Source of the DNA: Escherichia phage EK99P-1
Sequence record: NC_024783.1
Direction: 5' to 3' (one strand)
DNA: 44,332 bases
Below, in pieces: positions 1 to 44,332 of the stretch. Below the pieces are notes generated by a model, which ran no database searches, was not told where the DNA came from, and saw only the letters and a program-made list of their open reading frames with translations. Position 1 is the stretch's first letter. Every line of letters begins with the position of its first letter. Both the position numbers and the translations under genes were made by a program.

Positions 1-55
1 TATAATCCCACTTAGATGGCAGGGCCGTCTCCTATGTTGCCGATGGTCGGCGCAT

Positions 56-8071: not shown

Positions 8072-8090
8072 CGGGCGCACATCCCAAATG

Positions 8091-12024: not shown

Positions 12025-14667
12025 ATGGCAGATCAGGCAGCAGGCATCACGCTAAAGGCTGATGTTGCACAAATCAGAACGGCAAATACTGTGCTGGACT
12101 CCTTCGCACAGAAATCCGAGAACACAGAAAACAAGGTTAAGAAATTAAACGACACCCTCGGCAAATCCAAAAAGGTGACGAGTGACGCCGCGGGCGGAAT
12201 GGAGAAGCTGGCGACTGAATCGCAGCGCGCCGCCGATGGCATGACGAAACAGGAGCGACTTGCCAACAGGTTAGGCATGTCGACCAAAAACCTGGGCTTT
12301 GCCTCGCGTAACGCCGCATTCCAGTTACAGGATATCGCAGTTACGCTTGAGATGGGGATGCCTGTTCACCGCGTCATGCTTCAGCAGTTACCGCAGCTAA
12401 CTGGGGCGTTTGGCGGACTGGGAAACACGCTGCGTTATGTCGTCGGCACACTCGGCCCGTTAGGGATTGGCATCGCTGCATTAACGGCAACGCTCGGCGT
12501 AGGGGTGGCAATTACGACCCGCGCAGAGAACCAGGTGGCGGCGCTTAATAAGACGCTGGCGCTGTCCGGTAATATTTCAGGCCTGACAGCTAACCAGATC
12601 CTTGTGCTGTCCGAGAACGCCGAGCGCATGGGCGGGTCATTTCGCAAGACGCGTGACACAATCCAGGCGCTGGCGGCGGCGGGTGTGAAAGCGGGTGGTG
12701 ACTTTGGCGCATTGGCTAAGGTAGTGAATGACTTTGCGAAGGTGTCCAGCCAGCCGATCGAGGATGTGGTGGCGGCGGTGGCGAAGCTGTCAACCGACCC
12801 GGTAGGCGGCTTGCGCGCACTGGCGGATAAGTATCACGTCGTAAACGAAGCGCAGATCCAGCAGGTACAGTCGCTGGTTGATGCGGGTCGTGAGACAGAC
12901 GCAGTTGCGTTGGCTAACAAAACAGCCGCTGCGTCGTTCACCAGCATGACCAATGAGATCAAGGCGAACATGGGCACGCTTGAGCGGTCTATGAACGTCG
13001 TCACATCGGCAGCTAAATCGATGTGGGACGCTATCCTGGATGTGGGCCGCGCGCAGTCCTCCAATGAGTCCGAGATGAAAGCGCGCGAATCACTACAGCG
13101 CATGACCACGGCATACTATGCCGAGATGAAAGCGGTAAACGCTGCCGGTGGGGTAATGACCGAAGCGCAGAAAGCGCGTATTAACATGCTTTACAGCGAA
13201 CTGGTCGCCCAGGAAAAAGTAGTGGCGTCGCTCACCCTGCGTAACCGTGCGGAGCGAGACAACGCCCGCGCCGCGGACGAATCAGCAAAGGCGAACGAGG
13301 AGGCCAACCGCACCGCTCGCGACCGCGCCGCGTTCGAGAAGGAGTACGCAACTAACGCGAAGAAGCGCGCTGACGAGATCGCCCGCCTCAATTTGCTGAA
13401 TAAGCGCGGCGTTATCGACGAGAAAGAGCTTGCTGAGGCGGTGAAGCAGGTAAACGAGCGTTACAAAGACCCCGCCCCGAAGAAGGCCGCGGCTGTTCGC
13501 GTGGATGCCGGTATGAAAATGCTGGAAGTCGCACGGAGCGAACTGGCCCAGCTTCGAGAATCCGGCAAGCAGATCGAAGCCAACGCATCGACGCAGACCC
13601 GAACGCAACGCGCTCAAGCGGCCTTAAACAAGCTGATCGCGGATAATGAGCAGTTAATCGCCGCAAGCAAAGAAAGAGCGCTAACGGCAGCCGAAAAGCA
13701 GCAATTAGTCGAGTTCGGGCGCGTGAAGGAAGTCCGCGAGCAGATCGTCGAAGAAGCCAAATTGCTGGACGCGAAAGAGAAGCAGGTTAAGGCGCACGCG
13801 CAGATCGATGCCTTCGTTAAGAACCAGAACGCCGAACTAAAAGCCACCGCCGCGGGCTATGCCCTTTCCACTCGCGAAGCGGCAAACCTGCGCGAAGAAT
13901 TGCAGCTAATCGACCGCCTGAAGCGTGTAGGCGCTAACGATACCGATATCGACAAGGCGGTGTCTAAGCTGCGAGAAGTGCAGGAAGCACAGACCGGCGC
14001 TAACGCCTCGTTATGGGATGGATTCAGTCGCGGGCTTAAGGATAGCGTGGATGAGATGGGTAACGGATATACGCAGATGGCGTCTCTCACGAAATTCACA
14101 TTCAGCGCTATGCAGGACACGATGAACGAGTTTTTCGAGACTGGCAAGCTGAACGCAAAGGATATGGTTAAGTCCATCCTGAGCGAATTAATCAAGCTGG
14201 CTACCTCGCAGGCGTTCAAGTCCATCGTTAGCGCTTTCGGTGGTGACGGCGGCAAAAACGGATTGTTCGGCGCTATCTTCTCTGGCCTTACTAAGAATGC
14301 GGACGGCGGAGCGTACGCAGGAGGCAATCTCGCGGCCTATTCGGGGAAAGTGGTAAGCCAGCCTACCTTTTTCAGTTATGGCGTCCAGGCGTTCGCTAAG
14401 GGCGCTGGGTTGATGGGTGAGGCTGGACCCGAGGCCATCATGCCACTGAAGCGCGGGCCGGACGGGAAACTGGGCGTTGCCGCGTCTGGCGCAGGCGGTG
14501 GTATGGTCGTGACGACTAACGTTTACACGGGGACTGGTAAAACGGATACCAGTGTCAGCGGGCCGGACCCCCGTACTGCGCAAGCGTTCGGCAAGCAAAT
14601 AACCGAGGCGGTGAAGGCCGAGATCGTGAAAGCTACGAAACCGGGTGGAGTACTTTACAAACGATGA
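12025..14667 (+). CDS. tail tape measure protein
   Basis: 880 aa, Ala- and coiled-coil-rich with a Gly-rich C-terminal part, directly after the G/GT chaperone genes. Confidence 0.85.
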   Translation: MADQAAGITLKADVAQIRTANTVLDSFAQKSENTENKVKKLNDTLGKSKKVTSDAAGGMEKLATESQRAADGMTKQERLANRLGMSTKNLGFASRNAAFQLQDIAVTLEMGMPVHRVMLQQLPQLTGAFGGLGNTLRYVVGTLGPLGIGIAALTATLGVGVAITTRAENQVAALNKTLALSGNISGLTANQILVLSENAERMGGSFRKTRDTIQALAAAGVKAGGDFGALAKVVNDFAKVSSQPIEDVVAAVAKLSTDPVGGLRALADKYHVVNEAQIQQVQSLVDAGRETDAVALANKTAAASFTSMTNEIKANMGTLERSMNVVTSAAKSMWDAILDVGRAQSSNESEMKARESLQRMTTAYYAEMKAVNAAGGVMTEAQKARINMLYSELVAQEKVVASLTLRNRAERDNARAADESAKANEEANRTARDRAAFEKEYATNAKKRADEIARLNLLNKRGVIDEKELAEAVKQVNERYKDPAPKKAAAVRVDAGMKMLEVARSELAQLRESGKQIEANASTQTRTQRAQAALNKLIADNEQLIAASKERALTAAEKQQLVEFGRVKEVREQIVEEAKLLDAKEKQVKAHAQIDAFVKNQNAELKATAAGYALSTREAANLREELQLIDRLKRVGANDTDIDKAVSKLREVQEAQTGANASLWDGFSRGLKDSVDEMGNGYTQMASLTKFTFSAMQDTMNEFFETGKLNAKDMVKSILSELIKLATSQAFKSIVSAFGGDGGKNGLFGAIFSGLTKNADGGAYAGGNLAAYSGKVVSQPTFFSYGVQAFAKGAGLMGEAGPEAIMPLKRGPDGKLGVAASGAGGGMVVTTNVYTGTGKTDTSVSGPDPRTAQAFGKQITEAVKAEIVKATKPGGVLYKR

Positions 14668-14703
14668 TAAAATGGCCCCCACATCCATCGTGGGGGATCT
14701 TCT

Positions 14704-35575: not shown

Positions 35576-36061
35576 TTAATCTTCCAGTTCGAAATAAGTT
35601 TCGACGATTTCTTTAAGTTCTGTGTGGAAGTCTTCGACGTCTTCATCTTCCAGCTTGGCGATTGATTTGATCTCGAACGATTCCAGCAGGTCGTCAAATT
35701 CGTCGTTCGCGTCGTCGTCGTCACCACCAGCGATAATAGCGGCATATTGTTTGATTTCGTCGCGCATCTCAGCCAGCGGATCGGCATCTTTCTTGCCTTT
35801 GCCTTTCGCCGGGGCTTTTTTACCCTTAGCTGGTTTTACGTCATCAGCGTCATCGTCGTCGTCATCTTCTACGACTTCTTTTTTGGCTTTCGCCGGAGCT
35901 TCGTCGTCAGCGTCGTCATCTTCTACGACTTCTTTTTTCGCCTTAGACGGCTTCTTGTCTTCCTGCTTGCCAACGGCAGCGCCAACGGTTTCATAATGCT
36001 TAGCGATGGTTTCCAGTGCTACTACGCCGCGAGTAATCAGGTTTACGATTTGTTCAAACAT
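35576..36061 (-). CDS. highly acidic repeat protein (possible DNA mimic / anti-restriction candidate)
   Basis: 161 aa, runs of D/E, internal duplication AKKEVVEDDDADDEAPAK / AKKEVVEDDDDDDADDVKPAK. First gene downstream of the leftward early promoter. Confidence 0.5.
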   Translation of the reverse strand: MFEQIVNLITRGVVALETIAKHYETVGAAVGKQEDKKPSKAKKEVVEDDDADDEAPAKAKKEVVEDDDDDDADDVKPAKGKKAPAKGKGKKDADPLAEMRDEIKQYAAIIAGGDDDDANDEFDDLLESFEIKSIAKLEDEDVEDFHTELKEIVETYFELED

Positions 36062-36406: not shown

Positions 36407-36452
36407 TTGACACCCTGCTGTTTTAGGTGTAGTTTCGTTGGTCATTAACCAA
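36407..36452 (+). promoter_or_regulatory. rightward early promoter (PR-like) with operator palindrome
   Basis: TTGACA (36407-36412), 17-nt spacer, TAGTTT (36430-36435), then TTGGT-catta-ACCAA (36438-36452) before the RBS. Confidence 0.55.
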
Positions 36453-36466
36453 CCGGGGACAGAAAA

Positions 36467-36796
36467 ATGAATATCAACGACGCAATCGAAATGTTAACTA
36501 AGACTGTTTGCAGTGAAACAAGCCGGTCCTGGGCGTATACCGATGCCGTGGGGGCGGTGCTATTTGAAATCGAACGCCTGCGACTCACCGAAAAAGAATT
36601 GCGCGCGAAGCTGGAATTACTCAACGGTACGGCAGCCAGCAAGCTGCAAAAGCACAATGAAGAAATGGAAGAATACAAAAAGCAGGTTATCCGTCTACGT
36701 GAGGAAGGTAAATCCTGGGCTATGATCGCCGAGCTAACCGGAATCAACCAGAGCACTGTGCGCTCCTGGGTACGCAATAATAAAACTTCCAAATAA
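36467..36796 (+). CDS. small HTH DNA-binding protein (candidate early regulator)
   Basis: 109 aa. C-terminal helix-turn-helix GKSWAMIAELTGINQSTVRSWV. First gene after PR. Confidence 0.55.
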   Translation: MNINDAIEMLTKTVCSETSRSWAYTDAVGAVLFEIERLRLTEKELRAKLELLNGTAASKLQKHNEEMEEYKKQVIRLREEGKSWAMIAELTGINQSTVRSWVRNNKTSK

Positions 36797-36806
36797 GGCT
36801 ACGACC

Positions 36807-39071
36807 ATGAGTTTAATTAAATTCGCCGTAACAAGACCCGCTAAAAAAGGCGAAAAAGCCAGGGCGGAAAACCTCCAGATGACCACCGATGAATTTTTCG
36901 AATTTATCAAAGATGCGAAAGAAATCTCATCGGTGCATATCAACAAGACGGAGGATAAAGCCGAGTATGCGCGCCGCAAGCGTAAGGCCGATGGCATCGT
37001 GGCATATACCAGTGACGGACTTCGCCGCAAGACCAGTGCGGTGGACCGCTCGATCCTGTTCTTTGATATTGACCGCACCGACACCCGCACCCTACGCCGC
37101 TGCCGTAAGGCGTTCATTGACGCGGGTCTGGAACACGTATTTCACACCACAACCGGCGACCGTCACCCACTGAAAGGCGGCACGCGTTGCGCCCGTTTCC
37201 TGGTGTTAACTGACAAGCCTGTACCGGCGGAAGACCTGGGCCGCGCCCAGTATGCCTTGTTAGCCCAACTGGGTCTGTCCGATGTGGACTTCGACGATTG
37301 CACGAAAGACACAAACCGCCTTATGTACCTGCCACACCAGCAATCTGTCATTAAATGCCACTACGGCAAGCGCGCCCGCGTCCGTCGTCTGCTCCGCCTG
37401 GCGGACAGGCTGGGAGTTGAGAAAGAGGAAGTGCGCCGCGAACTAACCCAGGGTGATGACGGCATGGCGGACGGTATTCTGGATTGGTGCTTCCAGGCAG
37501 GATTCGAACCGCTGTCGTCCGGTCGTGGTTATGAAGTTCCATGCCCGAACGAACATCTGCATAGTGGCGAAGGGTCCACCGCTATCATGGTTAAGGATGG
37601 CGAGATCCGTTTCAAGTGTATGCACACCGGCAACGAGTGTTGCTCGGAACTGAATAGACACCAGCACCTGGCGCTACGTCTCATCGGGATACCGGACCAC
37701 CTGAACGTCGAGCCGCACAACATGTCCCGTAAGCAAATCGCCGCCATCCTCCCAGGGCTGGACGACGAGGAAGTCGAATCCTTATATGAACATATTGTTG
37801 ATGCGGTTGGCGACGGCGAAGAATACGGCGTGTGCACCGATGCGGATCTGGATAACGAGCCGGTTGCGCTGTTCAGCAAGCACGACCCGATTATCGAGGG
37901 GTTGATTAACTTTAAATCAACTTGGTATATGGCTGGCGAGTCGAACATCGGTAAGTCTTTCTACGTGCTGGGGCAAATGGGTGCGGTTGCCGCGGGGATT
38001 CCGTTCGGTGGCGCGAAGGTAGTCCAGTCTCATTGCTTCTATTTCGATGCGGAAGGTGGCGAAGCCTCTAACCAGCGTAAGGAAGCATTGCAGATCAAAT
38101 ATGAGCACGATCTCGACAAGCTGCACATTATCGACCTGCAAACTCGCGGCTGGGATATCACCAGCAAATCCGGCTTGCGTGAAGTTATCAGCTTTATCAA
38201 CCGCACCGCTAACGGCGAACCGGTTGGCCTGGTGGCATTCGACTCCCTCAACCAGACTGTTGCGTTGCGGTCCGCCGATTCTAAACCGTTCGACGAGAAC
38301 AACGCCAGCGATATGGGCGAAGTGGTCAAAGCGCTGAAGGCCATTGCGGAAAATACAGGCGGCAGTGCGGGCGTCATCCACCACCCGGCGAAAGGTGCAA
38401 ACGGCAGCAGATCTCCCCGTGGGTCCGGCGCGCTGCATGGTGCTGTCGATTCCGCGTTCTTCCTGGAACAGCCGGACGACAATCAGCCTGGTCAATTGAA
38501 CCTGTATCACGAAAAGGCACGTAACGGCATCAAGCAAGCGCCGCGCGGCTTCGTCCTGCTCAAGTGCAAAGTTAAGGTAGATCTCCGCAAGTCCGAGGCG
38601 TTCGAATCGCACCAGTCCACCAGCACCGGGCCTGACTTCGGCGATGTGGTTGCCGGTTGGGACGTCAAGCCGATCGCATCCACGCCACGCGACGAGACTC
38701 TGTATCTCGTACCGGTCGCCCTGGCACCGTTCGCCATCGAACAGGCGAAGGCGGCGGGCAAAGCAGCAGTTAAGGACGAGAATGCCGCAGGACCGCGCAA
38801 CGAAAAAGAGAAAGTGCTTTATGCGGCGCTGGAAAAACTGATGGAAGATAACCCGGACCATACCGGATTCAGTAAATCGGCAATCGTCCGCCAGGCGGGA
38901 TTGGCAAAAGGTGGCACATCGACGAAGGCAATAGACGATATGGTGGAGCGCGGCGTGCTAGGTTTTTATACAGATCCGCATACCGGGGCCATCTATGGGT
39001 CGTCGAATATCGTCATAAAAACGAATATACCCATCACGCTTTCGGCGACCGATGACGACCTTAAAGATTAA
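36807..39071 (+). CDS. DNA primase / replicative ATPase (primase-helicase-like)
   Basis: 754 aa. N-terminal primase-like region and central P-loop GESNIGKS. Large early replication protein. Confidence 0.55.
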   Translation: MSLIKFAVTRPAKKGEKARAENLQMTTDEFFEFIKDAKEISSVHINKTEDKAEYARRKRKADGIVAYTSDGLRRKTSAVDRSILFFDIDRTDTRTLRRCRKAFIDAGLEHVFHTTTGDRHPLKGGTRCARFLVLTDKPVPAEDLGRAQYALLAQLGLSDVDFDDCTKDTNRLMYLPHQQSVIKCHYGKRARVRRLLRLADRLGVEKEEVRRELTQGDDGMADGILDWCFQAGFEPLSSGRGYEVPCPNEHLHSGEGSTAIMVKDGEIRFKCMHTGNECCSELNRHQHLALRLIGIPDHLNVEPHNMSRKQIAAILPGLDDEEVESLYEHIVDAVGDGEEYGVCTDADLDNEPVALFSKHDPIIEGLINFKSTWYMAGESNIGKSFYVLGQMGAVAAGIPFGGAKVVQSHCFYFDAEGGEASNQRKEALQIKYEHDLDKLHIIDLQTRGWDITSKSGLREVISFINRTANGEPVGLVAFDSLNQTVALRSADSKPFDENNASDMGEVVKALKAIAENTGGSAGVIHHPAKGANGSRSPRGSGALHGAVDSAFFLEQPDDNQPGQLNLYHEKARNGIKQAPRGFVLLKCKVKVDLRKSEAFESHQSTSTGPDFGDVVAGWDVKPIASTPRDETLYLVPVALAPFAIEQAKAAGKAAVKDENAAGPRNEKEKVLYAALEKLMEDNPDHTGFSKSAIVRQAGLAKGGTSTKAIDDMVERGVLGFYTDPHTGAIYGSSNIVIKTNIPITLSATDDDLKD

Positions 39072-39165
39072 ATTTTGCGCGCATTGGTTGCCATTTTGGG
39101 TGTTTTTATCTGGTCGTATTGGTTGCCGTGTAGTGTAGATATAATGAATAGTTATGCAATAAAAC

Positions 39166-39334
39166 TGCATAAACCAAACGGGACAGAAAGCGGGACAAAC
39201 AAGGGGCGGGACAAAGCGGGACAGCACCCCCGTCCCGCCCCGGATGGCGCGGCCTGGAGAGGAGCGGGACAGCGGGACAGCACCCCAGTCTTTCAGACTA
39301 GACGGGGGTCAGCGGCCCCCCTCGTCTGAGACTG
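39166..39334 (+). repeat. GCGGGACA iteron plus long hairpin element (copy B)
   Basis: 169 bp directly after the primase gene. Both flanks near-identical to 11788-11956, 34-bp central core divergent, one loop substitution in the hairpin. Confidence 0.8.
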
Positions 39335-39493
39335 CATAAAATCCGGGATTGCAAAATACACGGCAGCATGTTGCGGATTGCGGTCGTCGCTGAACTAGGC
39401 AACCAATGCGAGATGCGGAATGGTGGGTGGAAAATGCAGTTTGCAGTCACAGCAGATAGCGATCAACTTTTTCATGCGCGTGATTAATATTGG

Positions 39494-39535
39494 TTGCATT
39501 CAATCCGGCACCCGGCTATATTGGTTGCACACCAA
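39494..39535 (+). promoter_or_regulatory. sigma70-like promoter with downstream palindrome
   Basis: ATTGGTTGCAT (-35 TTGCAT, 39494-39499), 17-nt spacer, TATATT (39517-39522), then TTGGT-tgcac-ACCAA (39521-39535) and RBS GAGGA. Confidence 0.5.
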
Positions 39536-39550
39536 CATGAGGACTGAACA

Positions 39551-39841
39551 ATGAGAGCGTTAATCTGGAATTACACAATGGCAGTGGCAAAACAGGTCGA
39601 AGCGAGATATACCAACGGCAGAGCACCGTGGGAGCGCCTGGTAGCTCCGACCTGGTTTGCGATCATGGATGCGACCGCGGGCATGGAAGACCCCGAGCCG
39701 TTGCGCGCGGCTATCAGGGCTTACGCGCTTGCATTTGCCCGTGAACGCCTGGCCTATCGCTTCGGTATTGGCGATAAGGCAGTGACAAACGTCGCCCGGA
39801 TTAAAGCCCAGCGCGAACTATTCTCCCAGCTTGCGAAATAA
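39551..39841 (+). CDS. hypothetical protein
   Basis: 96 aa, RBS GAGGA, first gene after the promoter. Confidence 0.5.
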   Translation: MRALIWNYTMAVAKQVEARYTNGRAPWERLVAPTWFAIMDATAGMEDPEPLRAAIRAYALAFARERLAYRFGIGDKAVTNVARIKAQRELFSQLAK

Positions 39842-39850
39842 GGGGCCAAA

Positions 39851-40120
39851 ATGAGCCGTAGGCGCGCTAAACAGCTTTCCTGGCATATTCCCCTGCATTG
39901 CATACGAATATGGGCTAAGAATGCGAATGTGGGCGATTCTGTATTCTGGTGTTATCGCGATGACGTTAAGCCGTTGTCGCAGACTCGCTACCTGCACCAG
40001 TTCGCAGCACAACACGATTTCAGGGTGCGGACCTCCTTGCAACCAATGGGGATTCGTATTACATTACGCCGGAAGCCCGCCGTTGAGCGGGTAGGCAAAC
40101 ACTGGAGACTGAGCAAATGA
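39851..40120 (+). CDS. hypothetical protein
   Basis: 89 aa, basic, RBS AAGGGG. Confidence 0.45.
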   Translation: MSRRRAKQLSWHIPLHCIRIWAKNANVGDSVFWCYRDDVKPLSQTRYLHQFAAQHDFRVRTSLQPMGIRITLRRKPAVERVGKHWRLSK

Positions 40121-40308
40121 TGATTCGACTAAGCGACCAGGTGACGGACTCCGAGCTTGCGGAGTGGATTGCCGAAGGGTGGGTCAGTTATCGTTACGGG
40201 CCGCAGGTATGGGCTATTAAGCGCTGCCGTTGTGATATGCGCCCGCATAACGTGCGCAAGTTTATACGCAAGCATGGGGTATTTCTGGAGGCCGAGAAAT
40301 GTTACTAG
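40117..40308 (+). CDS. hypothetical protein
   Basis: 63 aa, overlapping start (ATGATG). Confidence 0.4.
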   Translation: MMIRLSDQVTDSELAEWIAEGWVSYRYGPQVWAIKRCRCDMRPHNVRKFIRKHGVFLEAEKCY

Positions 40309-40429
40309 GCGACTTCCCGCAGGAGCTTATGGACCTGCATATGTGCGTACTTGAATACGAACAGAACGGCATTGCTACGGTATGCGATGGCGACACGAAG
40401 ACTATCGACGAGATTGAGGAGACTGAACT

Positions 40430-41026
40430 ATGAAATTACTATTCCGCCGTAAAGCTGACGGTCGCATCCTGAAGCCGATCCAGACCCTGGATTCATACGT
40501 CCGCTTACAAAACGCGGCAGGCAATCGGGTATGGTGGGCGAAGAAAGACAAGCTGCAGGAAGACTGCGATATTCTCACACACGATATTGAGCGCGGCGAT
40601 GTGCTGCGTGATATTCGCGACGGTAGTATGTGGATCGTCGAATATGTCGGTCTTCATGGCCTGCGTATGCAAAACCGCAAGGATGGCGTAGCCGGTATGA
40701 CTTACTTCGGCCTTATCAACTACGAACGAGTGGGCCGCAAATACAGCCTTCGGGATCGCCAGCCGCATGAGCGGGCGAGCGCCATAGCGGACGCAGTTAA
40801 CCGCGTAACGCATGACGTGGCGCAGAAGACGCGTGTAGATTTCACCCGCTACGACTCCCACCAGGTGCAAGCGAAGATGGGCCGCGCCGTACACCAAATC
40901 GTCAATCGCTTCGATGCCGTGACGAATGCACAGCGCCATGCGCAGGAATACGGTTTTGGATTCATCCGGGTAGAACGCGACGGCAGCATGAAAGCCATCG
41001 ACCCGCGCTCGGTGATTCTGAGATGA
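40430..41026 (+). CDS. hypothetical protein
   Basis: 198 aa, RBS GAGGAG. Confidence 0.5.
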   Translation: MKLLFRRKADGRILKPIQTLDSYVRLQNAAGNRVWWAKKDKLQEDCDILTHDIERGDVLRDIRDGSMWIVEYVGLHGLRMQNRKDGVAGMTYFGLINYERVGRKYSLRDRQPHERASAIADAVNRVTHDVAQKTRVDFTRYDSHQVQAKMGRAVHQIVNRFDAVTNAQRHAQEYGFGFIRVERDGSMKAIDPRSVILR

Positions 41027-41147
41027 GTGCGACGATCCGAGATATGCTTCAGCATAACCGCTTTGAGATAGGCGGTCGGGTATTTCGCAATTACTTCGTG
41101 GCGCGTGCATGGGCGCGCCATATTGGCAAACCGGAAGGGGCAATTCG

Positions 41148-41435
41148 ATGTTACACGATGTGATTTATTGGTTTGGTTTGATCTGGGGGCTGTGCCTGCT
41201 TACTGCGGTGCTGTTGGTCGTCCTGTTATTCGTAGTATGGCCCGCCGTGGAAGCCGCCAGCATTACCCGCATGACGTTCGAGATCTACAAGCGCCGTGGA
41301 ATCACGGAGCACCCGACCCGGCTTCGGATGTGGTGGCTGTGGTATCGGGATATGATAGGCGGTCGAACATTTGAAGCCGTCCGATCATCCGGGTGGGAGT
41401 GGAAAGGCGTCGGCAAGTGGTCCATTTTCGATTAA
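41148..41435 (+). CDS. small membrane protein
   Basis: 95 aa from the ATG at 41148 (RBS GGAAGGGG). One long TM helix (IYWFGLIWGLCLLTAVLLVVLLFVVW). Confidence 0.45.
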   Translation: MLHDVIYWFGLIWGLCLLTAVLLVVLLFVVWPAVEAASITRMTFEIYKRRGITEHPTRLRMWWLWYRDMIGGRTFEAVRSSGWEWKGVGKWSIFD

Positions 41436-41453
41436 TTATGCAAGCGTGATATA

Positions 41454-41487
41454 GTCCCAGTGAGCTAAAACTTACTGGGACTTTTTT
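41454..41487 (+). terminator. rho-independent terminator abutting the holin start codon
   Basis: GTCCCAGT-12 nt-ACTGGGAC followed by TTTTTT, then the ATG at 41488. Confidence 0.5.
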
Positions 41488-41778
41488 ATGGATAAGCTAA
41501 ACGAGTGGTTATTCGCCATTGCGTGTCTTGCTGGTGGCTTCGTAGGCGCACGCATTCATGGCGAGGCAACGAAAGGGCCGTTGAACTTCGTTTTATATGT
41601 CGTAGTTGGATTCCTGTGCGCCATATTTGGTGCGCCAGCTATCGCCGAGTGGGCTGGTTTATCTGGCGAGCGCACTGTCGCCGGTTTGGGCTTCGTAACT
41701 GCTATCTTCTGGATGCCAATAGCCGCCCGGATCAGGGAGACTATTGAGTCGTTCCGACTTCCGGGGGGCGCAAAATGA
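41488..41778 (+). CDS. holin (putative)
   Basis: 96 aa with about three TM segments, immediately upstream of a second membrane protein and the endolysin. Confidence 0.55.
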   Translation: MDKLNEWLFAIACLAGGFVGARIHGEATKGPLNFVLYVVVGFLCAIFGAPAIAEWAGLSGERTVAGLGFVTAIFWMPIAARIRETIESFRLPGGAK

Positions 41779-42020
41779 TTATCTCCGTCCTGTTGTTTGT
41801 TATCATAGGGGCTTCGTCCCTGTTTAACGTGTATGCGCCGTCCGTCCAGGATGGCTTCTTCGGTCGGGTGTTATATCTGCTAACGGCAATGACCTGTATT
41901 GTCGGTCTGTTGCAAACAGGAGACGTATCTGACACCACCTGGACCGCGTTAATCTGGTTGTTTGCATTGCGCACGCTGCGTAATGCTGTTTTGAATGGGG
42001 TAAAACATGCGATTCAGTGA
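41775..42020 (+). CDS. second holin / antiholin-like membrane protein
   Basis: 81 aa with two to three TM helices, overlaps both neighbours. Confidence 0.45.
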   Translation: MIISVLLFVIIGASSLFNVYAPSVQDGFFGRVLYLLTAMTCIVGLLQTGDVSDTTWTALIWLFALRTLRNAVLNGVKHAIQ

Positions 42021-42498
42021 CAACGGTCTACGATTTACGGCAGCATGGGAGACTTTCATCCCGGTGCCGTATTTCGCGACCAAGAAAGAGCAGGCCCGCG
42101 GCCTGTACACCTGGGGCTATGGTCATACTGGCACTAATCCGCCTCGAAGCATTACCCGTGCGGAAGCGCTGGAACTGCTCAAGCGTGATGTGGCGTATGC
42201 CGAGGACTGGGTGAACAAATACGCGCATAAGAGCATTAACCAGGCGCAATTCGACGCGCTGGTGGACCTGGTAATCAACGCTGGCCCTGGTCCGATCGTA
42301 CCGGATGACGTCGCGAATGATTTCGATGATGCGGTGCGGTTGGGCGACTGGGCGAAGGTCCGTGCTACGCTGCCGCTATTCCGCAAGCAAGGCGGGGAAG
42401 TGCTTAAGGGTCTTGTGCGCCGTGCAATCGGCAGACAGGCGTTATTTGATGGTAAGCAGTGGGACGTTGCCGAGCGAATCGGTCGTAACGCAGCATAA
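42007..42498 (+). CDS. endolysin, lysozyme (GH24-like)
   Basis: 163 aa. SDNGLRF...WGYGHTG matches the catalytic region pattern of P22/lambda-type lysozymes. Confidence 0.8.
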   Translation: MRFSDNGLRFTAAWETFIPVPYFATKKEQARGLYTWGYGHTGTNPPRSITRAEALELLKRDVAYAEDWVNKYAHKSINQAQFDALVDLVINAGPGPIVPDDVANDFDDAVRLGDWAKVRATLPLFRKQGGEVLKGLVRRAIGRQALFDGKQWDVAERIGRNAA

Positions 42499-42688: not shown

Positions 42689-42714
42689 AAGCCCGGTTAA
42701 TTCCGGGCTTTTTA
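42689..42714 (+). terminator. rho-independent terminator after the lysis genes
   Basis: AAGCCCGG-ttaatt-CCGGGCTT followed by TTTTT. Confidence 0.65.
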
Positions 42715-42776
42715 TTGCTTTACTTGCAACCAACTATCAGACTATACTGCGACCAATCAACGAGAGGAGTAATACT

Positions 42777-43004: not shown

Positions 43005-43135
43005 AGATATTTGGGTATTAGCGATCTGGACCACCGCGGCTTTTATCGGCATGGTTATTTGCGAATTGATATAGCCCGCCGCCATACGGACCGTGGTATA
43101 TTGTCCACGGTCCACTAATCAGGAATTAATTAAAT

Positions 43136-44295: not shown

Positions 44296-44326
44296 CCCAG
44301 CCTGCCGATTTGGTGGGCTTTTTTGT
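44296..44326 (+). terminator. putative terminator at window end
   Basis: Imperfect GC-rich hairpin followed by CTTTTTTG. Confidence 0.4.
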
Positions 44327-44332
44327 GCCTGT

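Follow-up and report, generated by a model that had tools for sequence, protein, structure and literature searches.

Lysis timing decides burst size and phage fitness, and to our knowledge only lambda, T4, and a handful of other models have been worked out to any extent as regards how holin genes stay silent before lysis is due. For T4, McPheeters et al. reportedly described in 1986 a hairpin that masks gene e's ribosome-binding site, with a late promoter in the DNA of its 5′ strand. In early read-through RNA of T4, the hairpin covers both the Shine-Dalgarno (SD) sequence and the AUG, and lysozyme synthesis is reduced approximately 100-fold (PMC3014915, PMC2988022). In the T4 genes e, soc, 49, and I-TevI, the late promoters fall within the DNA for the hairpin's 5′ strand, so that late RNA is made without this strand and is translated (PMC3014915, PMC2988022). 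Here, we analyzed a hairpin that lies directly upstream of the first of two holin-like genes in Escherichia phage EK99P-1 (NC_024783.1), a Dhillonvirus (HK578-like siphophage) whose complete 44,332-bp genome constitutes the window. Our best model for this element, which we believe and doubt in about equal measure, is an insulator of the T4 gene e type in which a host-type promoter would be embedded.

Results

The stem of the hairpin has 12 pairs, 6 of them G-C and one G·U (41462·41473), and closes a loop of 6 nt (Table 1). By itself the hairpin has a folding energy of −17.9 to −19.8 kcal/mol. Folding of 61 nt gave −24.8 kcal/mol (z = −5.7), a stability reached by 0 of 200 shuffled sequences, and folding of 85 nt gave −29 kcal/mol (z = −4.4); in the terminator scan, the stem was the longest within 38–44.3 kb. 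The first-pass annotation of this DNA had claimed that the 3′ arm contains the only SD-like run before the holin ATG and that the U-tract runs directly into the start codon, and both claims are borne out. GGGA is the sole SD candidate, since just UUUUU separates the stem from the ATG, and it ends 7 nt upstream of the ATG. This SD is weak, with −3.9 kcal/mol for the interaction with the anti-SD, the genome median being about −6.2 kcal/mol. In the predicted fold the AUG is also paired, through a 5-bp outer helix (CGUGA:UUAUG) that extends the stem into a 17-bp interrupted helix. Opening the SD and the start codon in their local context would cost 16.7 kcal/mol, which ranked second among 62 open reading frames (ORFs), the ranks being approximate because this background includes some mis-called starts; the first-ranked site itself resembles one.

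We folded RNAs started at 41300 or 41436, and the cost of opening the SD and AUG was 16–21 kcal/mol. Because this cost stands against an SD interaction of −3.9 kcal/mol, an RNA with the whole hairpin is predicted to be essentially untranslatable for the holin, and something must therefore remove or bypass the 5′ arm. Moreover, the hairpin can close before the AUG is transcribed because the SD lies in the 3′ arm. An Rfam search with the locus returned only NsiR1 (RF02399) at 29.3 bits, below the gathering threshold of 39; this identity was dropped and the match read as that of a generic hairpin with a U-run. A leaderless start at the holin ATG was also discarded, as no −10-like hexamer lies 7 nt upstream, where the sequence is TGGGAC.

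An extended −10-like box, TGaTATAGT, overlaps the foot of the hairpin such that the 5′ arm begins with the three bases (AGT) that end the box. The box is of the sigma-70 extended −10 type and matches TGnTATAAT at 7 of the 8 specified positions. RNA begun in the start window predicted from it (Table 1) keeps at most 3–4 nt of the 5′ arm, and the hairpin cannot form. Indeed, for RNA started at 41460–41464 the computed cost of opening the SD and AUG was 1.4–1.6 kcal/mol, and that of opening the whole ribosome footprint 2.3–5.4 kcal/mol. Folding also made the short RNA 5–15 kcal/mol more open than the long one in phage welsh, in the L014 type, in LSPA1, and in K1G. A dedicated start site between the hairpin and the ATG, which the first-pass annotation had named as the finding that would speak against its own reading, has no room in the 5 nt available there, but the conserved box places a candidate start slightly further upstream, within the 5′ arm.

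The extended motif TGnTATARTCCCA occurs exactly twice in the circular genome, where chance would supply approximately 0.01 additional copies. The second copy, upstream of the terminase small-subunit gene, runs across the genome ends and comes shortly after a terminator (44299–44319) whose 3′ arm contains a −35-like TTGGTG. This second-box module is conserved in relatives behind three different upstream genes, and the divergent phage L084 has TGaTATAAT at the same site within otherwise different sequence. At this second site, the sequence reads TGtTATAAT followed by a small hairpin (AGATGGC/GCCGTCT, to position 31) with which the terminase transcript is predicted to begin; L084 has another hairpin, AGGTGG/CCACCT, in its place. 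Genome-wide, 20 extended −10 candidates were counted, compared to 10.9 ± 3.4 in shuffled sequences, and several of them are intergenic and co-oriented with the downstream gene, including in the early divergent region.

The hairpin has all the sequence features of an intrinsic terminator, namely a stable G+C-containing stem-loop and an adjoining U-tract. Its T-tract score is 4.56, and its terminator discriminant of about 26, to be read as a relative measure only, falls inside the range of the other terminators of the genome (17–44). Among natural Dhillonvirus variants the discriminant decreases to about 2 in welsh and to −6 in locus L003, and the SD is still paired in both. The position of the hairpin, after the rightward block of replication and small genes, likewise agrees with the terminator call of the first-pass annotation. 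This block is closed by the 108-aa ORF, whose TAA (41433–41435) lies 18 nt 5′ of the hairpin foot, and a scan of the plus strand from 38000 to 41453 for sigma-70 −35/−10 promoters found none. In Dhillonvirus, the hairpin with its U-run should terminate upstream transcription.

Such a terminator could be leaky, with rare read-through giving the only holin mRNA and the occluded SD giving slow holin build-up and delayed lysis. The terminator form and score of the hairpin agree with this explanation, as does the lack of an experimentally known promoter downstream, and the terminators of the structural operon at 8090 and 10925 must themselves be read through. However, the computed opening energies predict essentially no initiation, not slow initiation. 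At the read-through sites 8090 and 10925, which follow likely capsid and tail genes, the downstream SDs (AGGAG and GGAG) are free outside the stem, which makes the holin arrangement unusual in its own genome; the contrast suggests that this arrangement is deliberate. In addition, the sister clades described below have the lock but no terminator, and the SD that it covers is a perfect one (GGAGGA), which would make little sense unless the lock gets opened. We therefore regard a leaky terminator as unlikely. Of the interpretation in the first-pass annotation, terminator form and SD occlusion stand, while the dependence of holin translation on read-through or on an RNA started further upstream is contradicted by the sister clades and by the energetics, both arms being present in such RNA.

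An SD inside a hairpin is not unique in this genome. A CCCCCAC/GTGGGGG stem (14676–14696) located after the tape-measure gene holds the SD (GGGGGA) of gene 14704; it begins 9 nt after the tape-measure stop (14665–14667) and its opening cost is 16.2 kcal/mol. With a score of −33 this hairpin is not a terminator, and it is probably a translational-coupling device.

Cleavage of the upstream RNA in or near the hairpin, for instance with RNase E cutting the loop or RNase III the extended helix, followed by translation of the 3′ product, would resemble the way in which type I toxin mRNAs or the leader of lambda N are activated. The loop (CUAAAA) is A/U-rich, the outer helix lengthens the duplex to 17 interrupted base pairs in the predicted fold, and small toxic membrane proteins are often controlled in this manner. 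Against such processing, cutting the loop would leave the two 12-nt arms paired (approximately −18 kcal/mol), the 12-bp stem is under the typical length of an RNase III substrate, no part of the module is less conserved than the loop, and most of the upstream RNA in Dhillonvirus would end at the terminator before the AUG. Taken together, these points leave processing as a distinctly unlikely explanation.

Gene order at the locus is like that of lambda Q-tR′-S, and notably a protein of 198 aa with unknown function (40430–41026; 100% identical to EK99P-1_0054) has its gene a short way upstream of the lysis cassette; this order would fit a lambda-like antitermination in which a Q- or N-like protein, or a put-like RNA, drives late read-through of a tR′-like terminator. 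Among the hits listed, the 198-aa protein is restricted to Dhillonvirus, with at least 69% identity in all 120. It has no Pfam or NCBIfam match, a search of PDB sequences gave only a chance match (E = 1.1), and its AlphaFold (AF2) model is of low confidence, with a mean pLDDT (predicted local distance difference test score) of 52. No Q, N, or other antiterminator family was found in the upstream ORFs with Pfam, PHROGs, and NCBIfam, and Rfam returned no known antitermination RNA; nor was any candidate recognized upstream of the terminator for a late promoter combined with a Q-binding element and a pause site. Read-through RNA would still fold with its SD locked, and the sister clade has no terminator to antiterminate, all of which renders antitermination very unlikely.

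A 2.2-kb query around the hairpin matched 155 phage records, nearly all of them Dhillonvirus. In 24 distinct Dhillonvirus sequences, the mean minor-allele fraction over the 52-nt intergenic stretch was 0.021, compared to 0.149 for third positions and 0.029 for the first two positions of the holin codons, a pattern indicating that selection is acting on the non-coding module, which exceeds holin codon positions 1 and 2 in conservation. The TGaTATAGT box and the T-run (5–7 T) are invariant across these sequences, as is AUAU (41449–41452), even though it is unpaired in the predicted fold. The module is identical in phages whose lysis cassettes are only about 85% identical, and also in L095 despite a different upstream gene, so it travels with the holin gene. 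In the divergent L014 type, whose holin is 71% identical and begins MEVFHKLEEW, GGGG stands in place of GGGA and there is an added C in the 5′ arm, with the stability of the hairpin retained (−19.4 kcal/mol).

The near-perfect inverted repeat overlapping a promoter-like box could also be a DNA operator, that is, a 30-bp site at which a dimeric phage or host protein binds to control the promoter, the RNA hairpin being incidental. A second inverted repeat at 43081–43111 encloses another box. However, the sole imperfection of the holin repeat is a G·U pair in plus-strand RNA and a mismatch in DNA, and an A-to-G change in L124 again yields G·U; the two G·U pairs point to pairing at the RNA level, on the plus strand. 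From one clade to the other, nothing of the arm sequences is shared, yet they still pair and the 3′ arm still holds the SD; moreover, a T-run and a constant spacing of 5 nt to the start codon are features at the RNA level. We thus consider an operator highly improbable. As to the repeat at 43081–43111 itself, it consists of GGACCGTGG-N8-CCACGGTCC, has the box TGgTATATT (43094–43102) in its loop, and is located upstream of the exonuclease gene (43136); nearby, TGATATAGCCC (43067–43077) resembles the holin box and ends in C.

Only 2 nt separate the stop of the 108-aa ORF from a three-codon mini-ORF, ATG-CAA-GCG-TGA (41438–41449), that most Dhillonvirus sequences retain. Its stop lies 4 nt before the stem foot, so that UCCC, the partner of the SD, would be covered by a ribosome terminating there, and it is retained in the L014 type despite substitutions. 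Ribosomes on this or on the upstream ORF might melt the hairpin foot, free GGGA, and re-initiate. Yet the mini-ORF lacks an SD, L088 has ACG instead of its ATG although the module is otherwise intact there, Kagunavirus has no such mini-ORF, and the stop of the 108-aa ORF, 18 nt from the stem, is beyond the reach of a terminating ribosome. The loss of the ATG in L088 led us to reject coupling through the mini-ORF, and translational coupling in general has very little probability in our estimate.

Homologues of the holin with approximately 46% identity are encoded in Kagunavirus (K1G-like) and Jerseyvirus (LSPA1). In both genera the holin gene is preceded by CGTG(G/C)TATCCTCCAG...CTGGAGGATtcatcTTG, which forms a 9–13-bp hairpin; about 60 Kagunavirus/Jerseyvirus loci contain ATCCUCCAG...CUGGAGGAU, ending 5 nt before a UUG start. 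In this hairpin, an exact anti-SD (UCCUCC) pairs with a strong SD (GGAGGA, −9.3 kcal/mol). The distance from hairpin to start is 5 nt in both clades; the geometry is kept and the bases are different. The T-run is absent in Kagunavirus and Jerseyvirus, which have TCATC instead, and the terminator scores are −55 in K1G and −38 in LSPA1. As far as the sequences tell, the conserved feature is SD occlusion and termination is an addition seen in Dhillonvirus, because the sister clades keep the SD hairpin without the T-run. Across both groups, 15 distinct variants (about 110 loci) all form hairpins with the SD in the 3′ arm (−11.5 to −23 kcal/mol), as judged by folding each sequence and by a manual comparison anchored at the stem foot. 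RNAalifold on a MAFFT alignment of both clades gave no pairs, the stems being out of register, and this result was treated as an alignment artefact.

The box has a counterpart in the sister clades, TG(G/C)TATCCT; the sole polymorphic base in about 60 Kagunavirus loci is the free "n". Although the two clades have different hexamers (TATAGT and TATCCT), neither shows any variation in TG, in TA, or in the T that ends the hexamer. An alternative upstream −10 in Kagunavirus, GATAAT, was disfavored, as it is GATAAA in L117 and L125 while TGnTATCCT is invariant. In more distant loci, Pantoea phage MED16 has a terminator and then directly TGcTATCGT 5′ of its holin homologue, and LIET2 has a terminator and then TATAAT; these elements sit tens of nucleotides upstream of a free SD, an uncompressed layout.

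Two further observations concern the sister clades. An inverted repeat, AGGAtaatTCCT, is found 8–10 nt 5′ of the box at L016 2416–2432, with equivalents in about 60 Kagunavirus loci; L117 and L125 read AGGATaaATCCT at this place. AGGAU of the repeat could pair with AUCCU of the main 5′ arm as an anti-anti-SD, which hints at an additional switch in that clade. In Salmonella phage LSPA1 (L017 2290–2340), the homologue of the class II holin-like gene, with its TTG start at 2501, is unannotated in the record, and the SD-locking hairpin is preceded, at a distance of about 170 nt, by a canonical terminator (CTCCGAA...TTCGGAG with a T-run).

The features are compiled in Table 1. The rightward transcription unit upstream of the hairpin originates in a divergent promoter region near 36.4 kb, with a perfect TTGACA at 36407–36412, and encodes a small helix-turn-helix (HTH) protein, a helicase-primase, and small ORFs, the last being the 108-aa membrane protein. 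The hairpin is followed by the two holin-like genes, the PF00959 endolysin, a 55-aa ORF, and a bidirectional terminator, beyond which lies a promoter-like TTTACT-18-TATACT (42719–42748). Holin-like gene 1 has one ATG start, and its protein begins MDKLNEW. Pfam and NCBIfam scans of this protein gave no match, and a genome-collection scan for the holin family found no relatives, hence no prophage examples; its assignment as a putative holin comes from the PHROGs family match and from its position beside a second holin-like gene and a lysozyme.

Table 1. Coordinates of the holin-control module, the lysis cassette, and the second box in the EK99P-1 genome.
Feature	Position	Strand	Remarks
Upstream ORF, 108 aa	41109..41435	+	Predicted membrane protein, phrog_2531, function unknown
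Upstream part of module	41421..41446	+	Weak −35-like hexamers
Extended −10-like box TGaTATAGT	41447..41455	+	TG 41447-41448; hexamer TATAGT 41450-41455
Hairpin 5′ arm AGTCCCAGTGAG	41453..41464	+	UCCC 41455-41458 pairs with SD-like run
Predicted start window (inferred)	41461..41464	+	6-9 nt after hexamer, standard sigma-70 spacing
Hairpin loop CTAAAA	41465..41470	+	Most variable part of module
Hairpin 3′ arm CTTACTGGGACT	41471..41482	+	Holds GGGA 41477-41480
T-run, 6 T	41482..41487	+	First T paired with A41453; abuts holin ATG 41488
Holin-like gene 1, 96 aa	41488..41778	+	phrog_2359 "holin", E = 3.6e-32
Holin-like gene 2, 81 aa	41775..42020	+	phrog_2508; start overlaps gene 1 stop (ATGA)
Endolysin	42007..42498	+	Pfam Phage_lysozyme PF00959, E = 2.8e-20
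Bidirectional terminator-like hairpin	42689..42710	.	End of lysis cassette
Second box TGtTATAATCCCA, in terminator stretch	44299..44332	+	First three bases TGT at 44330-44332, end of stretch
Rest of second box TATAATCCCA	1..10	+	Upstream of terminase small-subunit gene (ATG 56 or 77)

The first gene of the rightward operon (36467–36796, 109 aa) shows a sub-threshold likeness to the HTH of sigma-70/extracytoplasmic function (ECF) region 4 (NCBIfam TIGR02937, E = 1.5e-4, under the cut-off), and its PHROGs family is named "transposase"; its product is possibly a small transcription regulator. An identical 27-nt direct repeat, GTCGTCATCTTCTACGACTTCTTTTTT, occurs at 35858–35884 and 35912–35938, 54 nt apart; both copies are inside the minus-strand ORF 35576–36061, with a terminator-like flag on the plus strand.

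Discussion

It is probable that the hairpin exists to stop RNA initiated upstream from expressing the holin. In the model that we favor, the hairpin would be a cis-acting insulator between the lysis cassette and the upstream replication/small-gene operon. RNA from upstream promoters would contain both arms, and the stem with its U-run has the form of an intrinsic terminator in Dhillonvirus; in RNA escaping termination, GGGA and AUG would be paired and the holin would not be translated. Host sigma-70 RNA polymerase would recognize TGaTATAGT and start at approximately 41461–41464. The resulting short RNA, without the 5′ arm, should form neither the terminator nor the SD lock, and a free GGGA-U6-AUG leader would feed holin 1, holin 2, and the endolysin. 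Commitment to lysis would then come only from the embedded promoter and not from spill-over of the upstream operon. If the embedded start is real, the holin would be independent of read-through, and the hairpin would still help to time lysis by insulation. Only tentatively do we propose the most complete version, a single 40-nt element that terminates the operon, locks read-through RNA, and houses a sigma-70 promoter, the lock-plus-promoter core being common to Dhillonvirus and Guernseyvirinae.

Several points weigh against an embedded promoter. The −35 region is poor: the candidate hexamers TTCGAT (41427–41432, 17-bp spacer) and TTTCGA (41426–41431, 18-bp spacer) match at 2 and 3 of 6 positions, respectively. 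At equal base frequencies, about 34 matches at 7 of 8 positions to TGnTATAAT are expected by chance; the match by itself is not significant, and what argues for the putative promoter is its position and conservation. Parts of the box could be conserved for pairing, as its GUG may pair with UAU of the start region (or CAU of the spacer in Kagunavirus), and ATCCU of the Kagunavirus hexamer is already constrained as anti-SD. TATCCT is in turn a weak −10 hexamer (4 of 6), and in K1G the short RNA gains a modest 4.9 kcal/mol in openness over the long RNA. A literature search found no mapped transcript 5′ ends for Dhillonvirus or Kagunavirus. Finally, if the promoter were already active when infection begins, lysis would have to be timed in another way, for example, by the kinetics of holin accumulation. 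Latent periods in the genus are 10–20 min (PMC5945888), and a short latent period fits a host-polymerase promoter because no late factor is needed.

If this model is true, a large, much-used set of therapeutic and model coliphages (Dhillonvirus, Kagunavirus, and Jerseyvirus, with members in the BASEL collection) would control its holin by a compact cis element that is predictable from sequence alone, and the T4 gene e strategy would have evolved or persisted in siphophages that depend on host polymerase, suggesting promoter-in-hairpin insulation of holin genes as a general, overlooked design. Payloads engineered 5′ of the lysis cassette would not leak into it, and the element would offer synthetic biology a natural compact part that joins terminator, insulator, and promoter. 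For annotation, a terminator located directly before a gene would not need to imply dependence on read-through.

Among described systems, lambda pR′-tR′-S also has an intrinsic terminator directly 5′ of the holin, where regulatory or replication genes give way to lysis genes. However, the lambda terminator sits some 200 nt downstream of pR′, and the ribosome-binding site of S is not part of it, whereas in EK99P-1 the SD is inside; lambda read-through needs Q, while no Q-like protein is detectable in the upstream ORFs of EK99P-1 and its read-through RNA would stay locked. The sdi structure of lambda S is likewise a stem-loop at the 5′ end of a holin gene that overlaps the SD and modulates initiation. 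It sets the ratio of S107 and S105 starts, in contrast to the EK99P-1 holin, which has a single start and no dual-start motif, and the EK99P-1 hairpin is far more stable than sdi and terminator-like.

Dual-acting expression platforms and attenuators resemble the locus in that one stem-loop with a U-run terminates while its 3′ arm holds the next SD. These platforms switch conformation, whereas the proposed escape in EK99P-1 is an alternative start site, and neither a ligand-binding or leader-peptide sensor nor an alternative anti-terminator fold was seen (Rfam search). In type I toxin mRNAs (hok, tisB, dinQ), a 5′ structure also silences the full-length RNA, a shorter RNA is active, and the product is a small hydrophobic membrane-damaging protein; their active species arises by processing and is opposed by antisense RNA, neither of which is seen in EK99P-1.

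The closest likeness is to T4 gene e. Both have a lysis gene downstream of earlier transcription and a long RNA that pairs the SD and/or AUG in a stable hairpin; the T4 promoter is placed so that transcripts without the 5′ strand are translated, and the candidate promoter of EK99P-1 would be placed likewise. T4 uses a gp55-type late promoter (TATAAATA) with mapped 5′ ends, whereas EK99P-1 has a predicted sigma-70 extended −10 box; it thus lies outside the T4 late-promoter group and would work like the e system with another promoter type. EK99P-1 is of a lineage unrelated to that of T4, being a siphophage in which no late sigma modifying RNA polymerase was identified, and its gene is holin-like, that of T4 being a lysozyme. 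The Dhillonvirus hairpin adds a U-run and should terminate, while the T4 e hairpin is not described as terminating. Computed for EK99P-1, the T4 logic gives an opening cost of 16.8 kcal/mol in the long RNA and 1.5 kcal/mol in the short one, and new relative to that logic would be the host sigma-70-type box, the holin gene, and the terminator added in Dhillonvirus.

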